Part shown: positions 1,228 to 37,308 of the stretch, piece after piece | Numbering within the stretch: the first letter of the stretch is position 1 | How the letters are laid out: every line of letters begins with the position of its first letter | Origin: Octopus sinensis | Lineage: Eukaryota | DNA: 48,250 bases | Assembly (NCBI RefSeq): GCF_006345805.1 | Contig: NW_021834529.1 | Location: 1-48,250 of the forward strand | Direction: 5' to 3' | Notes under the pieces: generated by a model | The model's database searches: none | Seen by the model: only the letters and a program-made list of their open reading frames with translations | What the model was told of the DNA's origin: nothing | Position numbers and translations under genes: made by a program

Positions 1228-2287
1228 CATACCATACATTATATATACATATAGTATATACACACATACATACCACGTATATATATGATATATATATATA
1301 TATCTTTACATATGTGTTTGTGGAGATGTATATGTATGCATACATACATACATACATACATACATACATACATACCGACATACATACATTACAATACCAT
1401 ACATACATAACATACAAATTGTATACGCATAGATAAAGAGGCGTTCTGTGTGTCGTCTATATGTGCTTGTTATATGTGTCTGCGAAATGAGGACATGGGT
1501 GGGTTGGAGACAATCCATTGTCAGCATATCCGTCAGTCACTATGTATATATGTCAATTATAGAACTAATGTAAATCGAGACACTCTCAGATTAGAATATG
1601 CAATAAATATAAATAATAAATAATGTAGGATATAAAAAAAAAAGAAAAACATTAAAAAATCTTGAGAGAAGAAAAACCGAAAATATATATATATATCTAT
1701 ACAAAACAAAAAAAAAATAATAATGTCATGTTTAAGCAGAAAGATAGATTGTCTTTTATGTCTCCACGAATGAAACTTATCTTATTGGAAGTCATTCGAG
1801 AAGTTATTTGCTACTAATTAGGGTACGTATGCATGCATACATGCATACATACATGCATACATACATGCATGAAAAACGAATGATGATGAGGAAGATGATA
1901 GTAGGGGTGGCCGACGGTCGGTGGTAGTAGTTGTTGCTGGGTGGTGTGGGGGTGGGGTGGTGGTGATGATAACGACGAGTGCCACGGTTTACTATGATGG
2001 ACGATGCATTCAGTGACTGTAATGATAAGTAATGATGACGCAATGATACATAATACAGACATACATACATCATACATACTACATACATGCATGCATGCAT
2101 ACATACATACATAACATACATGCATACATAATACATACATACATACATGCATGCATGCATGCATAAATACATACATACATACAAAACATACCATACATAC
2201 ATACATAATACATACATGCATGCATACATAATACATACATACATACCTAATTACATACATACATACATGCATACATACATATATATA

Positions 2288-2636
2288 CAACTGATATAAT
2301 GATTTGGGATAGAGAAGAGCAACTGTACCCATTATGGAAATAGCTGCCAGCGGATGTTTAAGCGAAGATCAGTGGAAAAGGGAGGTTCAGGTTTATACCT
2401 GTAATTATTGGGGCCCTGGGATATGTAACCCACTGCTTAAATACTAACCTTGAGAAATTAGGCTTCTGAAAACCAGAAAGGAGAAAGCTAATTCGAAGGC
2501 TTACACATCCAATCCATCACTGGAACTGTAAAAATCTGTAAAACTTTTCAGAAGTTCATCATTTGAATATATATAAGTATCTCTAGGTATGTAATTCTAT
2601 CCGTGAGAATACATACATAAAACATGCAAATCTGCA
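2288..2636 (+). mobile_element. 3' fragment of an R4/Dong-like RLE non-LTR retrotransposon in a (CATA)n array, copy 1
   Basis: Manual translation across frameshifts: DIMIWDREE...FRFIPVIIGALGYVTHCLNTNLEKLGF*KPERRKLIRRL..IQSITGTVKICKTFQKFII*, the typical RLE C-terminus; (CATA)n on both sides. Confidence 0.8.
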
Positions 2637-2670
2637 CATACATACATGCATGCATGCATACATACATACA

Positions 2671-2704
<34 letters not shown>

Positions 2705-3026
2705 CATACGTTCGTACGTACGTACATACATACATACATACATACATACATACATACATACATACATACATACATACATACATACATACATACATGCATA
2801 CATTGATACATATATACATATATACATACTTACATACATGCATACATATATACATACATACATGCATACATACATACATATATACATATATACATGCATA
2901 CATACATACATATATACATATATACAACATACATGCATACATACATACATACATACATACCATGCATGCATGCATGCATACATACATACATACATACATT
3001 ACATACATACATACATACATAATACA

Positions 3027-3057
<31 letters not shown>

Positions 3058-3411
3058 CAACCTGATATAATGATTTGGCATAGAGAAGAGAAACTGTACC
3101 CAGTTATGGAAATTAGCTGCCCAGCGGATGTTTAAGCTGAAGATCAGTGGAAAAGGGAGGTTCAGGTTTATACCTGTAATTATTGGGGCCCTGGGATATG
3201 TAACTCACTGCTTAAATACTAACCTTGAGAAATTAGGCTTCTGAAAGTCTGAAAGGAGAAAGTTAATTCGAAGGCTTACACATCCAATCCATCACTGGAA
3301 CTGTAAAAATCTGTAAAACCTTTTAAAAGTTTATTATTTAAATATATATGAGCATGTCTAGATATGCAACTCTTTGCATGAGAATACATACATGAGACAT
3401 ACAAATCTGCA
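3058..3411 (+). mobile_element. 3' fragment of R4/Dong-like RLE element, copy 2
   Basis: Near-identical to 2288-2636; the ORF track shows QPDIMIWHREEKLYPVMEISCPADV (PD..E motif); flanked by (CATA)n. Confidence 0.8.
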
Positions 3412-3610
3412 CATACATACATAAAATACATACATACATACATACATACATACATACATGCATACATACAGGCATACATACATACATACATACATACATA
3501 CAACATACATGCATAAAGACATACCATACACTACATACATACATACATACATAATACATACATACATACATACATACATACATACATACATACATGCATA
3601 CATACATACA

Positions 3611-4329
3611 TTATGGCTGCCCCTCGTTATCGAGTATGGCCATTGCACGAAGCTAAACAGTTACTGGTGCTGTGATCGAATGTGACTTTTTAGCCCAGCT
3701 AAAGATCTACAATGTCTTGTACAGAATGGCAACTAAAACCTTACCGGTAATAGCCGGATGTAGTTGTAAAACTGGGCTTCATGTACCTTTGCATGGCGTT
3801 TAAGTCCTCCTGCCGATTACACTCTCTCTCCATATGCCCGACAGATATGATAGTATGGTGTGTTTTAACCACCAGTGGGCCAGGTTGTCACTCATCTGTC
3901 TCGTTTTATGACTACGAAGATGACTCATGAGTCTAGCTTTACTGAGGCAGGGTCTTGCACAGACACTGCATGTCAGAATCAAAGGAGGACCCTTCCCTTC
4001 TGGAAGTGTAACAGCGATGCCCTTCCTGACATCCCTCCTACCTTCTCATGTGCAACTCGAGATTTCTCAAACGAGGGCTGTCTCCTCATGCACATCCTTC
4101 TCCACCTGCTACGATCAATAGTTATGCCTTCCATGTGTCAGGAGAGATGCAGCATCTCTTAGGAAGCCTTCAGCAAGTCCTTATACCTCTTTTTGGTTAG
4201 TGGAGGTCGTTCCCCTTTAGCTAACTCTCCATAAAATGGTGTTTTGGGCATCCTTGAATCCATCATTCTGACCAGATGACCACTCCATCTGAGCCTTTGC
4301 TTTAACACAAGAGCTTCTATACTTTCAAC
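3611..4329 (-). mobile_element. 5'-truncated RTE-like LINE fragment with C-terminal C2H2 fingers, embedded in (TATG)n
   Basis: SIEALVLKQRLRWSGHLVRMMDSRMPK..FYGELAKGER..KKRYKDLLK (RTE post-RT motif) and CSVCARPCLSKARLMSHLRSH; the 3' end cgaggggcagccata runs into (TATG)n. Confidence 0.85.
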
Positions 4330-4496
4330 ATACATACATACATACATACATACATACATACATACATACATACAAACATACATACATACACACATACATA
4401 TATACATACATACACACATACATACATACATACGTACCTACCTACCTACCTACCTACCTACATACATACATACATACATACATACATACATACATA

Positions 4497-4600
4497 CCCT
4501 GTTATTCATTTTGAAATTCCAATGAAGGAACCTTGGATCTAGGTTAGAAACCGGTTCTTGCTCTATTGGCAAGAAATCTTGAAATAAACTGAATAATACC
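4497..4600 (+). mobile_element. ~105-bp (CATA)n-associated repeat, copy 1
   Basis: ccctgtt...gaaattccaatgaaggaaccttgg.tctaggttagaaaccggttc...gaaataaactgaataat; recurs at 4740-4842 and 35234-35339. Confidence 0.75.
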
Positions 4601-4661
4601 ATACATACATACATACATACGTACGTACGTACATACATACATACATACATACATACATACA

Positions 4662-4695
<34 letters not shown>

Positions 4696-4739
4696 CATAC
4701 ATACATATATACATACATACATACATACAAACAAAAATG

Positions 4740-4842
4740 CCCTGTTGTTGATGTTGAAATTCCAATGAAGGAACCTTGGTTCTAGGTTAGAAACCGGTTC
4801 TTGCTCTATTGGCAAGAACTCTTGAAATAAACTGAATAATGA
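4740..4842 (+). mobile_element. ~105-bp (CATA)n-associated repeat, copy 2
   Basis: Near-identical to 4497-4600; followed by catacatac. Confidence 0.75.
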
Positions 4843-5539
4843 CATACATACAAATACAAGGAGGAGCAAAAGCTGCGTTGATGATGCGTATTGATGCAGA
4901 AACACTCCTGCACTTGTTCTTTTCTTTTCTTTTCTTTTTTCTTTTTGTCTAAAAAGCAAAGAAAACCGACATTTCCCCAAAACCAAAGTTTTCCTAAACG
5001 GCAAATCAGCTTCGTAGTTTTTTTTTTCTTTCTTGATTCTTAAGATTGTCTCCCTTTAACATCGGTGCCAACTGCCACTACGAGGAATGTCTTTTCTGAA
5101 TGAGTTTGTTTGATATGTAGTGTACTTTTCAATGCGTTATACAGAGTATTTTTAAACGTCTTGTCACATAAACAAATATTATAAACAAACAGTCATAGAT
5201 AGTCATGCATACTTACATACATACATACATACGCACATGCCTCTAGGCTTAATTTAATTCACCTAGATCAAAGAAAAGTTAAACTTAAATACTTTAACGG
5301 TTACGTTAAGTTCCGTCATTCACACGCCACCGAAATCAGCATATGTTGAACAATAAAAGCCTGGAAGACCTTTCTAAGATTTAAAACAAGGCATTATTGT
5401 GCAAAGAACGACGGAAAGAACAAGTCATGAATATTTTCACTTGTTTTGGGAGGATGGAGTGGGAAGGGGTGGGGGTTAAATATTATTCTTTTTTTTCTTT
5501 TATCCATTTACTATATACACACACACTTATACACATACA

Positions 5540-6148
5540 CACACGACAGACCGTCATATACACACACACACACGACAGACCGTCATACACACACACACAC
5601 GACAGACCGTCATATACACATACACACGACAGACCGTCATATACACATACACACGACAGACCGTCATATACACACACACACGACAGACCGTCATATACAC
5701 ACACACACGACAGACCGTCATATACACATACACACGACAGACCGTCATATACACCCCACACGACAGACGTCATATACACTACACACGACAGACCGTCATA
5801 TACACACACGACAGACCGTCATATACCACACACACGACGACCGTCATATACACACACACACGACAGACCGTAATATACCATACACGCGACAGACCGTCAT
5901 ATACACACACACACGACAGACCGTCATATACACACACACACGACAGACCGTCATATACACACACACACGACAGACCGTCATATACACATACACACGACAG
6001 ACCGTCATATACACACACACACGACAGACCGTCATATACACACACACACGACAGACCGTCATATACACACACACACGACAGACCGTCATATACACATACA
6101 CACGACAGACCGTCATATACACACACACACACGACAGACCGTCGTGTG
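5540..6148 (+). repeat. ~24-bp minisatellite (CACACGACAGACCGTCATATACAC)n, roughly 25 units
   Basis: Direct tandem repeat with a constant core GACAGACCGTCATATAC and a variable CA tract. Confidence 0.95.
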
Positions 6149-16461: not shown

Positions 16462-17047
16462 CTTTTCTACTCTAGGCACAAGGCCCGAAATTTTTTTGGG
16501 GTGGGTGGGGAGCAGTCGATTAGATCTACCCCAGTATGCAACTGGTATGTAATCTATCGACCCTGAAAGGACAAAGGCAGAGTCGACCACGGCAGAGTTT
16601 GAACTCAGGGCGTAAAGACAGACGAAATTCCTATTTCTTTACTATCCACAAGGGGCAACACATAGAGGGGACAAACAAGCACAGACAAACGGATTAAGTC
16701 GATTACATTGACCCCAGTGCGTAACTGGTACTTAATTTATCGATCCCGAAAGGAGGAAAGGCAAAGTCGACCTCGGCGGAATTTGAACTTAGAACGTAAC
16801 GGCAGACGAAATACCTATTTCTTTACTACCCACAAGGGGCTAAACACAGAAGGGACAAACAAGGACAGACAAACGGATTAAGTCGATTATATCGACCCCA
16901 GTGCGCAACTGGTACTTAATTTATCGACCCCGAAAGGATGAAAGGCAAAGTCGACCTCGGCGGAATTTGAACACAGAACGTAACGGCAGACGAAATACTG
17001 CTAAGCATTTCGCCCGGCGTCCTAACGTTCCTGCCAGCTCGCCGCTT
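16462..17047 (-). mobile_element. SINE family B: one head plus three tandem body units under a single 17-bp TSD
   Basis: TSD GAAGACAGTTTGATATT at 16445-16461 and 17048-17064; three copies of the aaaggcaaagtcgacc..gaact core. Confidence 0.9.
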
Positions 17048-24468: not shown

Positions 24469-26303
24469 CAGCAAAACTAACGTCGCAAGACCATTCACCA
24501 TCGCCGCGACCAAAGACATTAACTTAGATTTCCCCCCACTCCCTACACCACTTGTCGATGATAAAAGGACGGAGAAAGGGATTTCAAAAACGAATACAGA
24601 CGAAAACATGAATGCCAGCACCACCACCATCACCACCACCACCATCACCACCACCACCAACAACAACGAAATGGGCACAAAGCCGCCTACCAAAGACAAC
24701 ACCGCCAACACCAACACCACTACTACGACTTCAACTACAACAACTAACCCCCTTCTGCTGCTAACACCTCCAAATTTAAAACGAATTTCGCGGATGCGAC
24801 AAAACAAAAACGAACAATTGTAAAATTCACTACACAGGAAATAAACCGCACAAAAGCACTCTTCACCAAAGAAGGAGACAAATTGCATTTTCACATTCCA
24901 CAACACATCGTGGAAAACACACAAAAAAAAAATAATCTATAAAGTAATAAACAAGAAAACAAGACGACCAGAAAATGCACCGCAGGAAAAAATTGAAAAA
25001 TGCCTTCGTCCTGCATGGGACTCCAAGGAATATATCAGTTGGGGAAATAAATTTGGTACAGTCCAAGTACGTTTCCTCAACGAAAATTTAGCAAAACGTT
25101 TTTCCACATTGGAGCTGCATTCAGACGACTTGGTAATGATACCAATCTATTTTAACCAGAGAGTCACGAAAGTCCAAATAAAAAATGTACCCCCTGAAGT
25201 CGAAACACAATGGTTAGTCTCTGCCATCTGCTTTGAAATGGCAGAGACAATGTCAGAGACAAACATCCTTGAAATCGCTGTTCTAGGAGAGAAAGACTAT
25301 GTGGGCAAATCAATCGAATTCCTGCTTCAAATGGATGAAGCAGCAAGAGAAAAGATACCCACCACTATAGAACTGCCAGGAGGCTACAAACTTTATGTAG
25401 TGGTAGAGGGCAGGCGACCACGCTGCTATTTGTGTGGAAGCGAAACACACTTGAAAAAGACGTGCCCAACCACTGCACACCAAGAGCAACAACAACAACC
25501 ACTACCACAACCAAAGCACTCCGGAAAAAAAGCTCTACTACCCACACCACCATCAACACAGAAGACGACAAGAGAAGCACACCAAGCTAATCCGTCATCA
25601 ACCAAAAACCACTCAACACCTGAAAAAATACCAACACCACCAACAACAGCAAGAACCAAAGGAATAGAAAAACAAAGAAAACACACAAAAACTGATCCCC
25701 CATCCCTTATACAGCACTCACCACACACAAACACTCAACAACCAACAGCAACGAAAACAACAGCACAACCACTTACACAGACATACATAGAAGCCTACAA
25801 CATACCCCTACCCCCTACTGATCCTCAGAAATTTCGTCGGAAGACGAAACCAGTGAGGAATGGCAAATAGCTACAAAAAGAAGGAAAATAAAGAGCAGAA
25901 ACACAACCAAACCAAATGCAAACACAAACAAAGCAGGGGGAAATACATCTCCCGAAGACATTTCAAAACCCAACACAAACAACAGCCACACCAACACCAC
26001 AAAAATATATACAGCAAACATGCTCACAGCTATAGACACCAAAAACACAAATTTGATGGAATACATCCAATCAAAAACAAACATAACAGAAGATGACATA
26101 AAAACAAACGATCACCCATACACAACACACCACCAGACCACATCAAAATATTACACATCTCCAAAAGTCTGCACCACACACTCAAAGGCATTCCCCCAGT
26201 GCGGTTGGTAAATGCCAAAAATATCTCACAAAGAACTGTACTGGGATCTCCTCGAGGACAAACCAAAGGAGGAGGAAAGCAAAAACTTTCGAGCAGTAAG
26301 TAA
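24326..26303 (+). pseudogene. LINE ORF1 (frameshifted) with zinc knuckle
   Basis: ATG at 24326; segment 25109-25870 contains KVQIKNVPPEV..VVVEGRRPRCYLCGSETHLKKTCP (CX2CX4HX4C); low-complexity Thr/Asn/Pro tracts. Confidence 0.8.
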
Positions 26304-26343
26304 CCCTCTGTTCCTTTCACTTGTATTCTAATTCATTAGGATT

Positions 26344-29300
26344 ATGATCAAGATTGGTTGTGTAAATGCGCGTGTCTTGGGGTCCCCTTGGAAACAAGGG
26401 TACCTCTTAAATGACATAAAGTCACATAAGTTAGAAATCATAGCCATAAGTGAGACCAGACTCCACAATCCGCGGGCCCTAAAGACCATGTTTGGCGGAC
26501 AGTTCAACATTTATTTCCCCCCCTGTCTGCGGTACTTTTTCGCAAGAGTCTGGATCTCAAAGTAAAGACAATATTCGTAGACCCGGAGGGTAGACTGGTC
26601 GTCCTGGATGTCGACGGCAGCAATGGGTGCGCTTTTCGACTCGTATCAGTCTACGCACCGCCCTTAACAGGTCTGGCGGATTTCTTTCAACGTCTAGAAG
26701 TATTCTTGGGAACGTCTCGTCCTTTACTCTTAGTGGGGGATTGGAATGCTACCTTGGACACGCATGTAGACTACGTGGGTAGAGATAGGAATAGACGGGG
26801 ATGCAAATGCCTCAGGGACCTGCTCAGACGCTTTCAACTGTCTGACAGGTTCCGACTAGACCACCCGAATGCGCCAACGTGGACATGGAGCAACCGCATC
26901 GGGTCGTCGAGATCGTATCTAGATAGGATACTGTGTAGGACAGTAGACAGAGATAGCATAGGATGTCCACAATTCCACATAGTCAGCTACACGGATCACA
27001 AACTTGTGACATGTACGCTAGACTTAGGTAAAACACTTAGGCAGGGTCCCGGATACTGGAAACTAAACGCGTCTTTCCCATCGAGACAGGTTTTCAGAGA
27101 CCGGATTAGCACACTAGTAAAGAGGGCTTTGACGGGAGCCATCATCAACAACAAATGGTGGTTTGCCCTCAAGAGAGCAGTAAAAGCCGAAGCGATTAGG
27201 TACAGCAAAGCACTAGCCATAGATAGAAATAGAGTAGAGGGTGAGCTAGTTAAGAAGCTAGAAGAGGCAATTAGAAGCGGCATCGCATCCGACGTTTTGG
27301 CGGCGAGGTTGGCCCTCGACCAACACTTCAACGCCAACACGAAGGATGTGCTGTCAGAGCTAGGATGCGTGCTCTAAGGAACGAAGGTGTTGGAGCCGCG
27401 AGAGAGGCCCGGGTGGCAGAGGCGCAACAGGGCAACAAAGCCACCATTCGGTCCCTGGTAGATGAACAGGGGCGCGAATTGCTCGAGCCAAGTAAAATGT
27501 GTGAGGCTTTTCAACAGCATTTTGCCCGACTGTTCGGGACGAGTGGCGGGCAAGAACGTAGGGTGGACTTCAGTGCCTACCTACACAGCCTACCACAACT
27601 CTCGACAAGAGAGTCAGGGTGCTGCGAAGGTGCCATCACGGCGGCGGAAGTGCAGGACGCGATAGCAGAATGCTCGAGGGACAAATCACCGGGTTCGGAT
27701 GGTCTACTCTACGAGTTTTACAATTGTATGCCAGACTTGTTTGGAGATCTCTTGGCGGCGGTGTACTGCAACTGGCAGCAAAACGGGAGCATTCCTGGTT
27801 TTGTGAGCCGAGGAGCCGTAACACTGCTGAAGAAAGATCTAAACAAGGGAAATGTAATAGATAACTTTAGGCCCATCACTCTGCTTAATGCAGATTTGAA
27901 AATTTTGGCCAAGGTGCTAGCCAAGAGGTTGGCGCTTGTCATCGAGAAACTGGTCGACAAGGCGCAAACATGCGCCGTGCCGGGCCGGACCATCCATGAC
28001 AACCTCCACCTGATGTGCTACATCATAGACAGGGTAGTTAACGAACCTGGCATGGGCGCTGATCAATTTGGATCAATCGAAAGCTTTCGATAGGGTGAAC
28101 CATCGATACTTGGAGGCAGTCCTCAGAGCGGCTGGATAGCCGCTTTGTACAGAGGCATCCGTTCGGTAATTCGCGTAAATGGACATCTATCGAGACCCTT
28201 CGACATCGCACGTTCGGTCCGTCAGGGATGCCCCCTCTCATCGCTTCTATACGTATTGACTCTCGAGCCATTATTGTGGAAGCTGGCAACTTTGAGGGGC
28301 ATCCCGCGAGAACTGGGATGCGGAACGAGCGTGTCTGCATACGCGGACGACGTCACCGTCATAGTGTCTAGCCACGAGCACATCGAGCAGGTCGGCGAGA
28401 CACTGAAAAACTACGAAGCGGTGACAGGAGCGAAAATCAACCGGGAAAATTCAGTGGGCTTGCGACTAGGCACCTGGAGAAGCAAGCCCATGCCGTCCAC
28501 CAGCGCCTCCGTCGTGGGACGCTGGACCGACGACCCGGTTGAGTTGCTCGGGGTCTGGTTTGGTCCGGACCTCCAAGTGGAAAAGAACTGGAACGAGATA
28601 ACGAGTAGGGTGGTCACTCTCGCCCGGCAGTGGGCCGAGAGGAAACTGTCCCTAAAAGGTCGGGCGGAGGTGGCGAACTCGTACATCGCGTCCGTCATCT
28701 ACTACCGCCTGACCGTCGTGCCTTGTCCCGACCCTCCCATCACCAAACTAGAACGCATTCTCTTTCGCTTCTTGTGGAAAGGATGCGTCCCGATGGTCAG
28801 GAGATCCATTTGCTGTCAACACCCGTTAAAAGGAGGACTGGGCATGCCGTGGTTGATGATACGCAGACACGCGCTGAGACTGCGACATCTCCGGCTCTAT
28901 GTAGACGACGGTGAACAGGTGTGGTCGCCGTTTGTGAGGCACGCTTTCCCGCAGCTCGTCTCCATGACCGAACTGCAGTCATGGATCAAAAAGAGGCCGA
29001 GGAAGGGCGGATGGCACCGCGAGTGTCGCGTTGCTCTCAAGCAACTCTGCCGTCCTGGGTCGACCTTGAGTGACTTCATCACAACCAAAGCATTCTATAG
29101 GGGATTAGTGGAGGGGAGGTACGACGACGAGCTCGGGGCGAACCTGGACATCGACGAGGAGTACCTGACCCGCCTGTTCGGGACGACTTTCGGGCCAGGA
29201 CCCATGGACAACTTCCAGAGATCCCTGGCCTGGCAGTGCTACCGAGAAGCGCTACCCGTTCGGATAAGCTCTACAGACACGGCTCGAGAAACACGGGGCC

Positions 29301-29716
29301 GACCTGCCCGAGATGCGGTCAGAGCGACGAAACCGTTCTGCACGCACTCGTGCAGTGTCCAACAATTTCCGGCCTGTGGGCTTATGTCGAACAACTGCTG
29401 TCACGTGTTGGACGAGTCGGTTTATCAGCTGAGTCTATCGTCAATTTGTCACGCCTCCTTCCTTCAAACGGGAAGGAAAGCTATTTTATCATCCTGTGGC
29501 TATGGCGAAAGAATGTATCTGGTGGACGCGTCTGAAAGGACTGGAGACAAACACTTTCCTCTCTGATCAATCTCTCATCAACTTCTTCAAGTACCACTTG
29601 AAAAGGAAGTGAGAGTAGAGAGGCAAGTTTTGTCTAGCGAATGTTTTAAAAGAAGATGGGTGAATGTAGCAAGGATGGCACGTATGAATGACGAGCCACC
29701 TTGAGCATAATCCTAT
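26344..29716 (+). pseudogene. LINE ORF2 (APE endonuclease, reverse transcriptase, C-terminal CCHC), several frameshifts
   Basis: MIKIGCVNAR, ISET, VYAP, GDWNA, SYLDRIL, TDHK, GPGYWKLN; SPGSDGL, FRPITLLNADLKILAK, KAFDRV, VRQGCPLS, YADD; LSLKGR, GGLGMP; CPRCGQSDETVLHALVQC. End coordinate approximate. Confidence 0.95.
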
Positions 29717-34325: not shown

Positions 34326-34547
34326 AACACGCGCATGCATACATGCGCAAACACTCACATACCTACACACACATACATACACACGTACGTGCTTACATAC
34401 ATACACACACATACATACACACATACATACACACATACATAACACATACATACACACAAACATCCATACACGCACATACGTACATTCATAATACATACAC
34501 ATGCATGCATGCATACATACATACAGACATACATACATACATACATA

Positions 34548-34752
34548 ATGCAACCCACTGCCTAAATACGAGTCTTGAGAAATTAGGCTTCTCAAAACCA
34601 GAAAGGAGAAAGCTGATTTGAAGATCCAGTCCATCACTGGAACTGTAAAAATCTGTAAAACTTTCCAGAGGTTTATCATTTAAATATATGTGAGCATGTC
34701 TAGATATGCAACTATGTGCATGAGAATACATACATAAAACATACAAATCTAT
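34548..34752 (+). mobile_element. R4/Dong-like RLE 3' end, copy 3, in (CATA)n
   Basis: ATHCLNTSLEKLGFSKPERRKLI; same 3' UTR as 2288-2636; different 5' truncation point. Confidence 0.8.
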
Positions 34753-34779
34753 ACATACATAGATACATACATGCATTCA

Positions 34780-35181
34780 GGCGCAGGAGTGGCTGTGTAG
34801 TAAGTAGTTTGCTTATCAACCACATGGTTCCGGGTTCAGTCCCACTGCGTGGCACCTTGGGCAAGTGTCTTCTACTATAGCCTCTGGCCGACCAAAGCCT
34901 TGTGACTGGATTTGGTAGACGGAAACTGAAAGAAGCCCAACGTATAAATGTATATATAAATGTATGTGTGTGTATATATTTATGTGTCTGTGTTTGTTCC
35001 CCCAACATCGCTTGACAACCGATGCTGGTGTGTTTACGTCCCCGTAACTTAGCGGTGCGGCAAAAGAGACCGATAGGATAAATACTAGGCTTACAAAGAA
35101 TAAGTCCTGGGGTCGATTTGCTCGACTAAAGGCGGTGCTCCAGCATGGCCACAGTCAAATGACTGAAACAAGTAAAGAGTA
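34780..35181 (+). mobile_element. SINE family A, full length
   Basis: Matches 9421-9822. Confidence 0.92.
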
Positions 35182-35233
35182 CATGCATACATACATATAT
35201 GCACACATGTTTACATGCATACATATATATATA

Positions 35234-35339
35234 CCCTGTTGTTGATGTTGAAATTCCCAATGAAGTAGCCTTGGATCTAGGTTAGAAACCGGTTCTTTCT
35301 CCATTGGCAAGAAATCTTGAAATATATCTGAATAATGAC
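35234..35339 (+). mobile_element. ~105-bp (CATA)n-associated repeat, copy 3
   Basis: Same start (ccctgttgttgatgttgaaatt) and end (tgaataatgacatac) as 4740-4842. Confidence 0.75.
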
Positions 35340-35799: not shown

Positions 35800-36378
35800 T
35801 GAGTTGGATATAGAAAGAGACAGATAGGAATAACACACGCAACCGTACTCTGAGATATGCCCAATACACATAGATAGAGAAATTAAGGCTAATAGGCCGG
35901 ATATAGGTTTTAGAGATGACCAAGAAAAAATGCTTTCTAATCGATGTATAAACAAATGACAATATTTCTCTAAAAGAAACGGAGAAACTTTCAAAATACA
36001 AAGATCTGGAAATAGAGGTAATTCGAATGTGGAGCCTAAAAACAGAAACAATTCCTATCATAATAGGCGCATTAGGTATGATAAAAAAACATTCACTCAA
36101 ATACATAACAAAAACGCCAGGACTTACAAGTATATATAGCATTACAGAAAACAGCTCTACAAGGCACAGCACACATCTTACGTAAAGCACTTTCAATAAA
36201 GTGAAAATAGCGCGGGAGTGGCTGTGTGCTAAGTAGCTTACTTACCAATCACGTGGTTCCGGGTTCTGTCCGACTGCGTCGCACCTTGTGTAAGTGTCTT
36301 CTCTATAGCCGACCAGAGCCTTGTGAGTGGATTTGGTAGACGGAAACTGAAAGAAGCCCGTCGTATATATGTATATGC

Positions 36379-36427
<49 letters not shown>

Positions 36428-36770
36428 TGTGTGTGTGTGCGTGTATGTTTGTGTTTGAGTGTCTGTGTTTGTCCCCCGCCCCCCTGCATCGCTTGACAAC
36501 CGATGCTGGTGTGTTGTGTTTACGTCCCCGTAACTTAGCGGTTCGGCAAAGAGACCGATAGAATAAGTACTACGCTTACAAAGAATAAGTCTTGAGGTCG
36601 ATTTGCTCGACTAAAGGCGGTGCTTCAGCATGGCTGCAGTCACATAACTGAAACAAGTAAAAGAGTAAAAGAGTATCGGAACACTACAACAAACAACAGT
36701 ACATAGTCAAGGCACATAGAGCTGTGCCTGGTAGTGCAGTGAAAGCACGTGATAAAAATAAGACTACTGA
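35800..36770 (+). mobile_element. Dong/R4-like RLE LINE 3' part, interrupted by a SINE, ending in (AAT)n
   Basis: DMPIHIDREIKANRPDI..NISLKETEKLSKYKDLEIEVIRMWSLKTETIPIIIGALGMIKK..QKTALQGTAHILRKALSIK*; presumed UTR resumes at ~36675. Confidence 0.85.
36209..36674 (+). mobile_element. SINE family A nested in the RLE element
   Basis: Matches the family A consensus; internal (TG)n. Confidence 0.9.
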
Positions 36771-36864: not shown

Positions 36865-37308
36865 CCCTGTGATCATAATATCTCGGCGAAAGAGTTTGAC
36901 AAGCTCAGAAAATATAAAGACCTACTCATTGAAATTGAGAAAATGTGGCATCTCAAGGCGGTTACAATACCAGTGATCGTAGGAGCACTAGGAATGATCA
37001 AGAAGGGAACCGAAAATTATATGAGAATGATCCCTGGCTTACCATCCCTGCAAGAAGTGCAAAAGATTATCTTAACTGGTACATCACACGTATTGAGAAG
37101 AGCATTGTCGATGTGAGAACTATTACTACCCATGTATTTTAATTTAACTTAAAAAAAATTTTTTTTTTAAATGAACGAACTAGTGAGTTTAGTTTAATGG
37201 CCTACCAATGTATACTTTGAGTTTGTTTGCCCTGGGAGTCGGGAAGACACTCGGCAAGAAATGGAAGCAAATTTGAAAGAAGAGGAAAAAAATAATAATA
37301 ACAATAAT
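36865..37308 (+). mobile_element. Second Dong-like RLE LINE 3' fragment, inserted in (AAT)n
   Basis: Open frame 36865-37116: PCDHNISAKEFDKLRKYKDLLIEIEKMWHLKAVTIPVIVGALGMIKKGTENYMRMIPGLPSLQEVQKIILTGTSHVLRRALSM*; (AAT)n upstream, aataataataacaataat downstream. Confidence 0.88.

Follow-up and report, generated by a model that had tools for sequence, protein, structure and literature searches.

Truncated R4/Dong-type retrotransposon copies abut (CATA)n arrays in Octopus sinensis and were probably inserted into them

The genome of Octopus sinensis holds dead, truncated copies of an RLE LINE, here called family A, whose 5' ends abut (CATA)n on the element's own strand in about two thirds of the copies sampled. 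We consider it probable that these copies were inserted into the arrays by target-primed reverse transcription, and that family A belongs to a separate branch of R4/Dong elements, one that is likely specific for tetranucleotide repeats. The coordinates in Table 1 refer to the window, by which we mean the whole stretch of 48,250 nucleotides of contig NW_021834529.1 that was analysed.

Table 1. Family A copies, their arrays and neighbouring Dong-like fragments in the window
Feature	Positions	Strand	Remark
(CATA)n array at 5' junction of insertion 1	2046..2290	+	likely target
Family A 5'-truncated body, copy 1a	2291..2636	+	RLE C-terminus, stop, first 70 bases of 3' UTR
(CATA)n array between duplicated copies	2637..3059	+	
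Family A body, copy 1b	3060..3411	+	tandem duplicate of 1a (5' point and deletions shared)
Internal 3' UTR (CATA)n array, first part	3412..3611	+	
RTE-like 3' fragment within internal array	3612..4327	-	label from motifs
Internal array, second part	4328..4493	+	
Family A terminal 110-base tail	4494..4597	+	true 3' end
Second tail	4733..4842	+	within 243-base tandem duplication; then CATACATACA
(CATA)n at 5' junction of insertion 2	34495..34547	+	
Family A body, insertion 2	34548..34750	+	independent insertion
SINE-like repeat within internal array of insertion 2	34779..35180	+	
Family A tail of insertion 2	35231..35338	+	then CATACACAC
Family C (TAA-type Dong-like) 3' fragment	35829..36770	+	ends in (AAT)n; split by SINE at ~36210-36685
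Family B (TAA-type Dong-like, young) 3' fragment	36865..37290	+	within family C's (AAT)n tail

An earlier note on this DNA had described three fragments encoding an RLE C-terminus with CATA-type sequence on both sides. All three are present on the forward strand, each with CATA-phase sequence on both flanks, and match the C-terminus of the family A ORF in tblastn (E 5e-32, 7e-27 and 1e-15, in the order of the table), a match that in copies 1a and 1b includes the PD..E part of the endonuclease. They represent two insertions, however, and not three. The starts of copies 1a and 1b differ by at most 2 bases, and the two have in common a 5-base deletion, a 51-base deletion, a 1-base insertion and substitutions, with differences at 25 of 346 sites. 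Because of the near-identical 5' point and the common deletions and insertion, they are one insertion that was duplicated, with unequal exchange between arrays as the likely cause. The copy at 34548 starts about 190 bases further 3' and has none of the deletions of the other two, and it is therefore an independent insertion, as the note had it. What the note took for target sequence on the 3' side turned out to be something else, namely an array internal to the element's own 3' UTR, with a 110-base tail beyond each array (twice in insertion 1) and the true ends only after that tail. An RTE-like piece and a SINE entered the internal arrays later, parting tails from bodies; the RTE-like label is a putative one, given from sequence motifs.

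The majority lines of family A, built from 29 and 30 loci, describe an element of about 4.1 kb, made up of a body of 3,915 bases, a (CATA)n array that varies in length, the 110-base tail and CATA again. A 5' UTR of 186 bases is followed by an ORF from base 187 to base 3,845 (about 1,220 codons), which in the majority line appears as two frames, of 254 and 991 codons, joined at an A-run that varies between copies, and by a 3' UTR made up of 70 bases, the internal CATA array, the tail and then CATA. The tail lies 3' of the body in 47 of the 62 copies with room to show it, and a body lies upstream in 20 of 26 loci found with the tail. In the remaining 15 of the 62 no tail lies within 1 kb of the body, as would fit priming at the internal array, though later loss could explain it too. 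Around six loci that have the tail alone there is no RLE coding sequence. CATA is joined in one and the same phase at the end of the body and at that of the tail, which gives the tail the look of flanking DNA or of an older 3' end picked up through read-through.

By all appearances of their sequence these copies are an old, truncated and dead RLE LINE. Their divergence from the majority line is 6.5% substitutions at the median and 3.6% at the minimum (142 alignments), with 2.1% for family B and 7.8% for family C, and the longest stop-free frame lying wholly inside a family A element has 345 codons (first 71 loci). In PMC13282606, a LINE/SINE wave at this divergence is dated to 18 million years, an age that may by inference be extended to family A. 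Sequence of the family was also very deep in read runs of three other organisms (X3, X6, X16, X22), and from this abundance it follows that the family predates their split.

How general the association with CATA is was assessed across the 2.72 Gb of the genome, scoring in each search the 40 best-scoring loci, which are not a random draw. The candidates were at least 3,695 with one fragment, at least 1,320 with the RT region, at least 315 with the 5' region and at least 1,534 with the tail. Forty evenly placed 10-kb stretches contained no family A copy and a single 71% match, as would fit a few thousand copies. We assembled 107 distinct 5' junctions, none within 800 bases of another family A copy, and counted a junction as positive when two CATA units lay on the element's strand within 30 bases of it. 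CATA was found at 69 of the 107 and TATG at four, versus 1.4% of 79,760 background windows, which excludes chance as the explanation of the flanks; the random 5' flanks that the earlier note had named as a refutation are not what is seen. The separate searches gave similar pictures (25/36, 14/23, 16/30 and 12/16, plus 2/2 in the window). Three CATA units are present at 50 of the 107, and short 5' tracts are common. Further upstream, the signal at these junctions falls to 24/107 at 100 bases, 6/105 at 200, 4/101 at 400 and 5/77 at 800. CATA also follows 36 of 44 true 3' ends, where it may be either tail or target; loci from the tail search were left out of this count because that query ran six bases past the tail.

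The earlier note had described the family as confined to such arrays, and this goes too far. Thirty-eight of the 107 junctions have no CATA within 30 bases. When 20 of these were traced 6 kb upstream, five proved to be interrupted copies with an upstream piece that begins at CATA, and for the other 15 there was no such piece. At least 15 junctions therefore look genuinely off-array, and the true rate of CATA at 5' junctions is probably 65-80%. The 5' flanks of family A are CATA-specific and strand-specific, but this is a strong preference rather than confinement. At some loci one family A copy sits in the array of the next, in head-to-tail order (L053, L054, L019, L078, L091, L096 and L014). 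An RTE-like family occurs in the same arrays on the opposite strand, in the window and in L007, L025, L129 and L163, with TATG at three of six 5' ends and four of five 3' ends in a small sample, most of it from family A loci.

In their domains the proteins encoded by family A are of the R4/Dong type, as the earlier note had proposed. A non-LTR RT was recognised by Pfam (RVT_1, E 4e-19) in a single copy, L061, and the best relatives among solved structures are R2 proteins (E 8e-24). In the same ORF the majority line carries C-x2-C-x8-H-x4-C, RHD, PD..E and K-x3-Y, which we take to be the CCHC knuckle and the PD-(D/E)xK endonuclease; in a relative, P0007, Pfam finds zf-RVT (E 3e-5). The N-terminus of A-like proteins matches a profile of 94 Dong-type N-terminal segments, from which A-like rows had been left out, at 98% (E 1.4e-13; control 0.4%). 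An AlphaFold model of the A-like N-terminus has three helices, with pLDDT above 90 over 63 residues. A Foldseek search of the PDB with this model gave no match at E<=0.001, and its weak rows included several helix-turn-helix DNA-binding domains. Family A is thus predicted, from profile and model, to have the Myb-like three-helix N-terminus of the Dong type. No C2H2/C2HC pattern occurs in the first 400 residues of any of 20 A-like proteins (20/20), nor is one visible by eye in the N-terminus of family A, and most of 18 aligned A-like rows have a conserved basic stretch (RR-N-R-Y-like) before the Myb motif.

Family A would accordingly be described as an RLE element of the R4/Dong type which, to judge from its ORF and its flanks, works like Dong without being Dong in the strict sense. 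R4/Dong elements are recognised by insertion into rDNA or a microsatellite, and here the microsatellite is seen in the CATA at its 5' junctions and 3' ends (69/107 and 36/44). The (TAA)n target of Dong proper is found in families B and C but not in family A, where three TAA units occur at 0 of 125 5' junctions. Neither are its flanks those of R4 proper, a 28S rDNA site with a target duplication, being CATA or unique DNA, and duplications are unreadable inside arrays. Nor does it have the apurinic-type endonuclease of Waldo; a C-terminal RLE is present instead, and Pfam finds no APE domain in the full-length relative P0007. An HDV-like ribozyme has been described at the 5' end of Dong and R4 (PMC3774820). 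Among 51 Rfam matches at E<=5 on six loci there was no ribozyme family, in a search whose sensitivity is limited by decayed copies and pseudoknots; the matches were microsatellite artefacts. Folding z-scores, limited in the same way, ranged from -1.9 to +0.3. The 5' ends of family A, L279 and L280 have a short G+C-rich hairpin directly after the array, and folding of the whole segment is not significant.

Homologues of family A fall into two tiers, about 60 proteins at 43-57% identity, including one from Argonauta, and others at 32-38%, including insect proteins. Its RT is 36-40% identical to that of TAA-flanked and insect Dong-like proteins, where by Dong-like we mean TAA-flanked or close to lepidopteran proteins. 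We placed these sequences in a quick RT tree of 39 rows, with SH-aLRT as the only support measure and a Tx1 outgroup on a very long branch; its rows covered A-like, TAA-flanked, insect Dong-like and 28S-inserted elements. All 13 A-like rows lie together on one side of a branch whose SH-aLRT support is 100 and whose stem measures 0.62, and families B and C fall among the TAA-flanked elements. Where the A-like branch stands with respect to two 28S-inserted elements is supported by only 83. These two (L312:89-4184 and L318:114-4072) are RLE elements in 28S rDNA with ORFs of 1,310 and 1,241 codons, a duplicated target of 13-14 bases and 48% RT identity to each other; we take their insertion site to be that of R4, and their RT is 29-30% identical to that of family A. 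It is likely, from this tree and the flanks, that family A belongs to a separate deep branch of Dong/R4 retrotransposons, one that inserts into four-letter repeats.

Relatives from metagenomes point the same way as to repeat length. Out of 80 loci, seven had an A-like best match (one of them doubtful, at 33%), and in four of the seven (CTTA)n lies at a contig end, in L280 at both ends, with four TAA units in none. The other 73 had three CTTA units in none, four TAA units in 38 and three CATA units, besides TAA, in two. Tetranucleotide targeting hence looks like a property of the branch, though from perhaps only two hosts, as the four CTTA contigs, whose record names run in a single series, may come from one. 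Two Dong-like elements, L289:1-105 and the 3' end of L330, sit beside (TGATAA)n and (ATG)n and not beside pure TAA.

By analogy with R2, the protein of the element would bind a CATA array and nick the TATG strand, and the CAUA repeats of the RNA would pair with the nicked strand and prime cDNA synthesis. Priming would mostly occur at the true 3' end but now and then at the internal array, which would leave copies without a tail, and 1-5 bases of microhomology would serve to join the cDNA end to the CATA upstream. The sites may later have been reshaped by slippage, by further insertions and by unequal exchange between arrays, as in the duplicate at 2291 and 3060. At clean 5' junctions, those at which the element directly adjoins a perfect run of 12 bases (n=32, including one tandem duplicate), microhomology of at least 2 bases with the missing element sequence is present in 15 of 32, with 7.7% expected (P 3e-9), an excess that fits microhomology-guided joining of the cDNA to the array; both window junctions are without it. 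In L050 and L064, which lie on two separate contigs, the truncation falls on one and the same base, family position 1400, just after internal CATA, and this position is likely a microhomology hot spot. A search for an empty site at L016 in reads and contigs of four runs found none, the matches ending at the arrays and both flanks being repeats, and 74 family A copies tested for paralogous empty sites matched nothing but arrays or themselves. What lies upstream of L016, a repeat considered as an interrupted host, is another truncated element.

One may consider other explanations for the same flanks. If CATA arrays were merely abundant, elements might pile up or survive in them without any targeting, and the window is indeed rich in arrays in which SINE and RTE-like copies sit too. 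We give this account practically no credence, since it is refuted by the specificity for strand and family. The asymmetry between strands is 83 to 4, and CATA marks 83 of 125 5' junctions of family A in the comparison of families, but 0/29 in family B and 0/60 in family C (together 0/89); it is also found at only 1/29 5' ends and 2/39 3' ends of the SINE control in random stretches, with the background at 1.4%, and the signal drops within 200 bases. TAA behaves conversely, with 0/125 in family A, 24/29 in family B and 25/60 in family C, whose set, cut at 78% identity, may mix subfamilies and interrupted copies (the fragment at 35829..36770 has no AAT at its local 5' flank); the note's remark that (AAT)n-associated relatives coexist at 35.8-37.3 kb is thereby upheld. 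Alternatively, the RNA might choose the site: a loose endonuclease would nick AT-rich DNA, the CAUA tail would pair with any short TATG patch, target duplication would put CATA on the 5' side and slippage would grow the arrays, making the element more a maker than a seeker of arrays. That CATA is carried in the element's own 3' UTR would suit such a scheme, as would the many short 5' tracts (three units at only 50/107), the quarter to a third of junctions off-array and the failure of empty-site searches to recover any. Yet at 19 of 126 junctions another family A copy lies within 800 bases, typically with the junction in its array, so that some arrays are likely older than the insertion, and the co-resident families B and C relate to their own repeat in the same way, as known Dong does. 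We regard this scheme as unlikely, and since it still needs CATA at the site, it would alter the mechanism and not the association.

The origin of the target is a separate matter. The earlier note had supposed a relative that switched its target, which would make family A a recent offshoot of TAA-targeting Dong families in this genome, and the three families do agree in domain order and Myb-like motif and occur together in one window. In RT identity, however, family A is only 37.8% identical to B and 39.2% to C, whereas B and C are 56.1% identical to each other and family A is 58.8% identical to the foreign L280; in the tree it joins foreign proteins on a long stem with support 100, relatives whose repeat is CTTA. 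A recent switch is accordingly very improbable, and a separate, deep branch remains the preferred reading.

Microsatellite targeting by RLE elements is already known, as is an ACAT target in another clade. According to PMC3812793 and PMC7998251, Dong of Bombyx mori, DongAg, DongBg and the ostracod Dong1/2 are (TAA)n-specific members of the R4 clade, and R4/Dong elements have a TAA target in most insects, molluscs and cnidarians (PMC7998251). Family A resembles them in its single ORF with RT and RLE, its Myb/SANT-like N-terminus without zinc fingers and the own-strand microsatellite on both sides; it differs in its target (CATA, CTTA in relatives, TAA at 0/125), its separate branch, the basic RR-N-R-Y-like stretch before the Myb motif and the 3' UTR with internal array and 110-base tail. 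Nematode R4, as described, shares the clade features of family A, but its target is 28S rDNA (PMC10946416, PMC7998251). Closest in target is Waldo (WaldoAg1/2, WaldoFs1), specific for (ACAY)n (PMC3812793), a class that includes ACAT, the same repeat as CATA; it has an apurinic endonuclease and belongs to the R1 clade, whereas family A has an RLE, and the two reached the same target independently. Togen, with (TG)n, and microsatellite-specific HERO families are RLE elements with targets other than TAA (PMC4640811) and belong, as described, to other clades.

Dong-R4 LINEs are abundant in octopus annotations (PMC13282606, PMC9115989, PMC8967140), and families A, B and C probably fall under that label; the available text of these papers gives no target sequence and no separate CATA family. 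The literature searched has no CATA or CTTA target for R4/Dong; Repbase, Dfam, the original Dong/R4 descriptions and supplements lay outside this scope and could list the family.

Target change in site-specific retrotransposons is an open question that is relevant to insertion tools. Here one genome has three RLE families with mutually exclusive repeat targets, CATA in family A versus TAA in families B and C. L280, moreover, has an uninterrupted ORF of 1,153 codons, CTTA at both ends and thus a target one base from that of family A, and comparing the two makes it directly testable which part selects the site, the Myb region, the endonuclease or the RNA tail. Family A, although its copies here are dead, also has a bearing on the richness of octopus genomes in CATA arrays. 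A broader and more tentative reading, on which we would put slightly less than even weight, is that of a third deep branch of the R4 group beside TAA-Dong and rDNA-R4, present in many animals and specialised on C(A/T)TA, in which the basic stretch before the Myb motif would set the repeat that is read, a one-base target change (CATA versus CTTA) would separate members, and thousands of octopus copies would have shaped the CATA landscape.

Elsewhere in the window there are tandem arrays with units of 243 bases (4356-4859), 27 bases (5529-6143) and 184 bases (16514-16998), and a long L1/Tx1-like LINE at about 24845-29563 (+) with an ORF1-like frame, an endonuclease-like frame and an RT 72% identical to that of L036.
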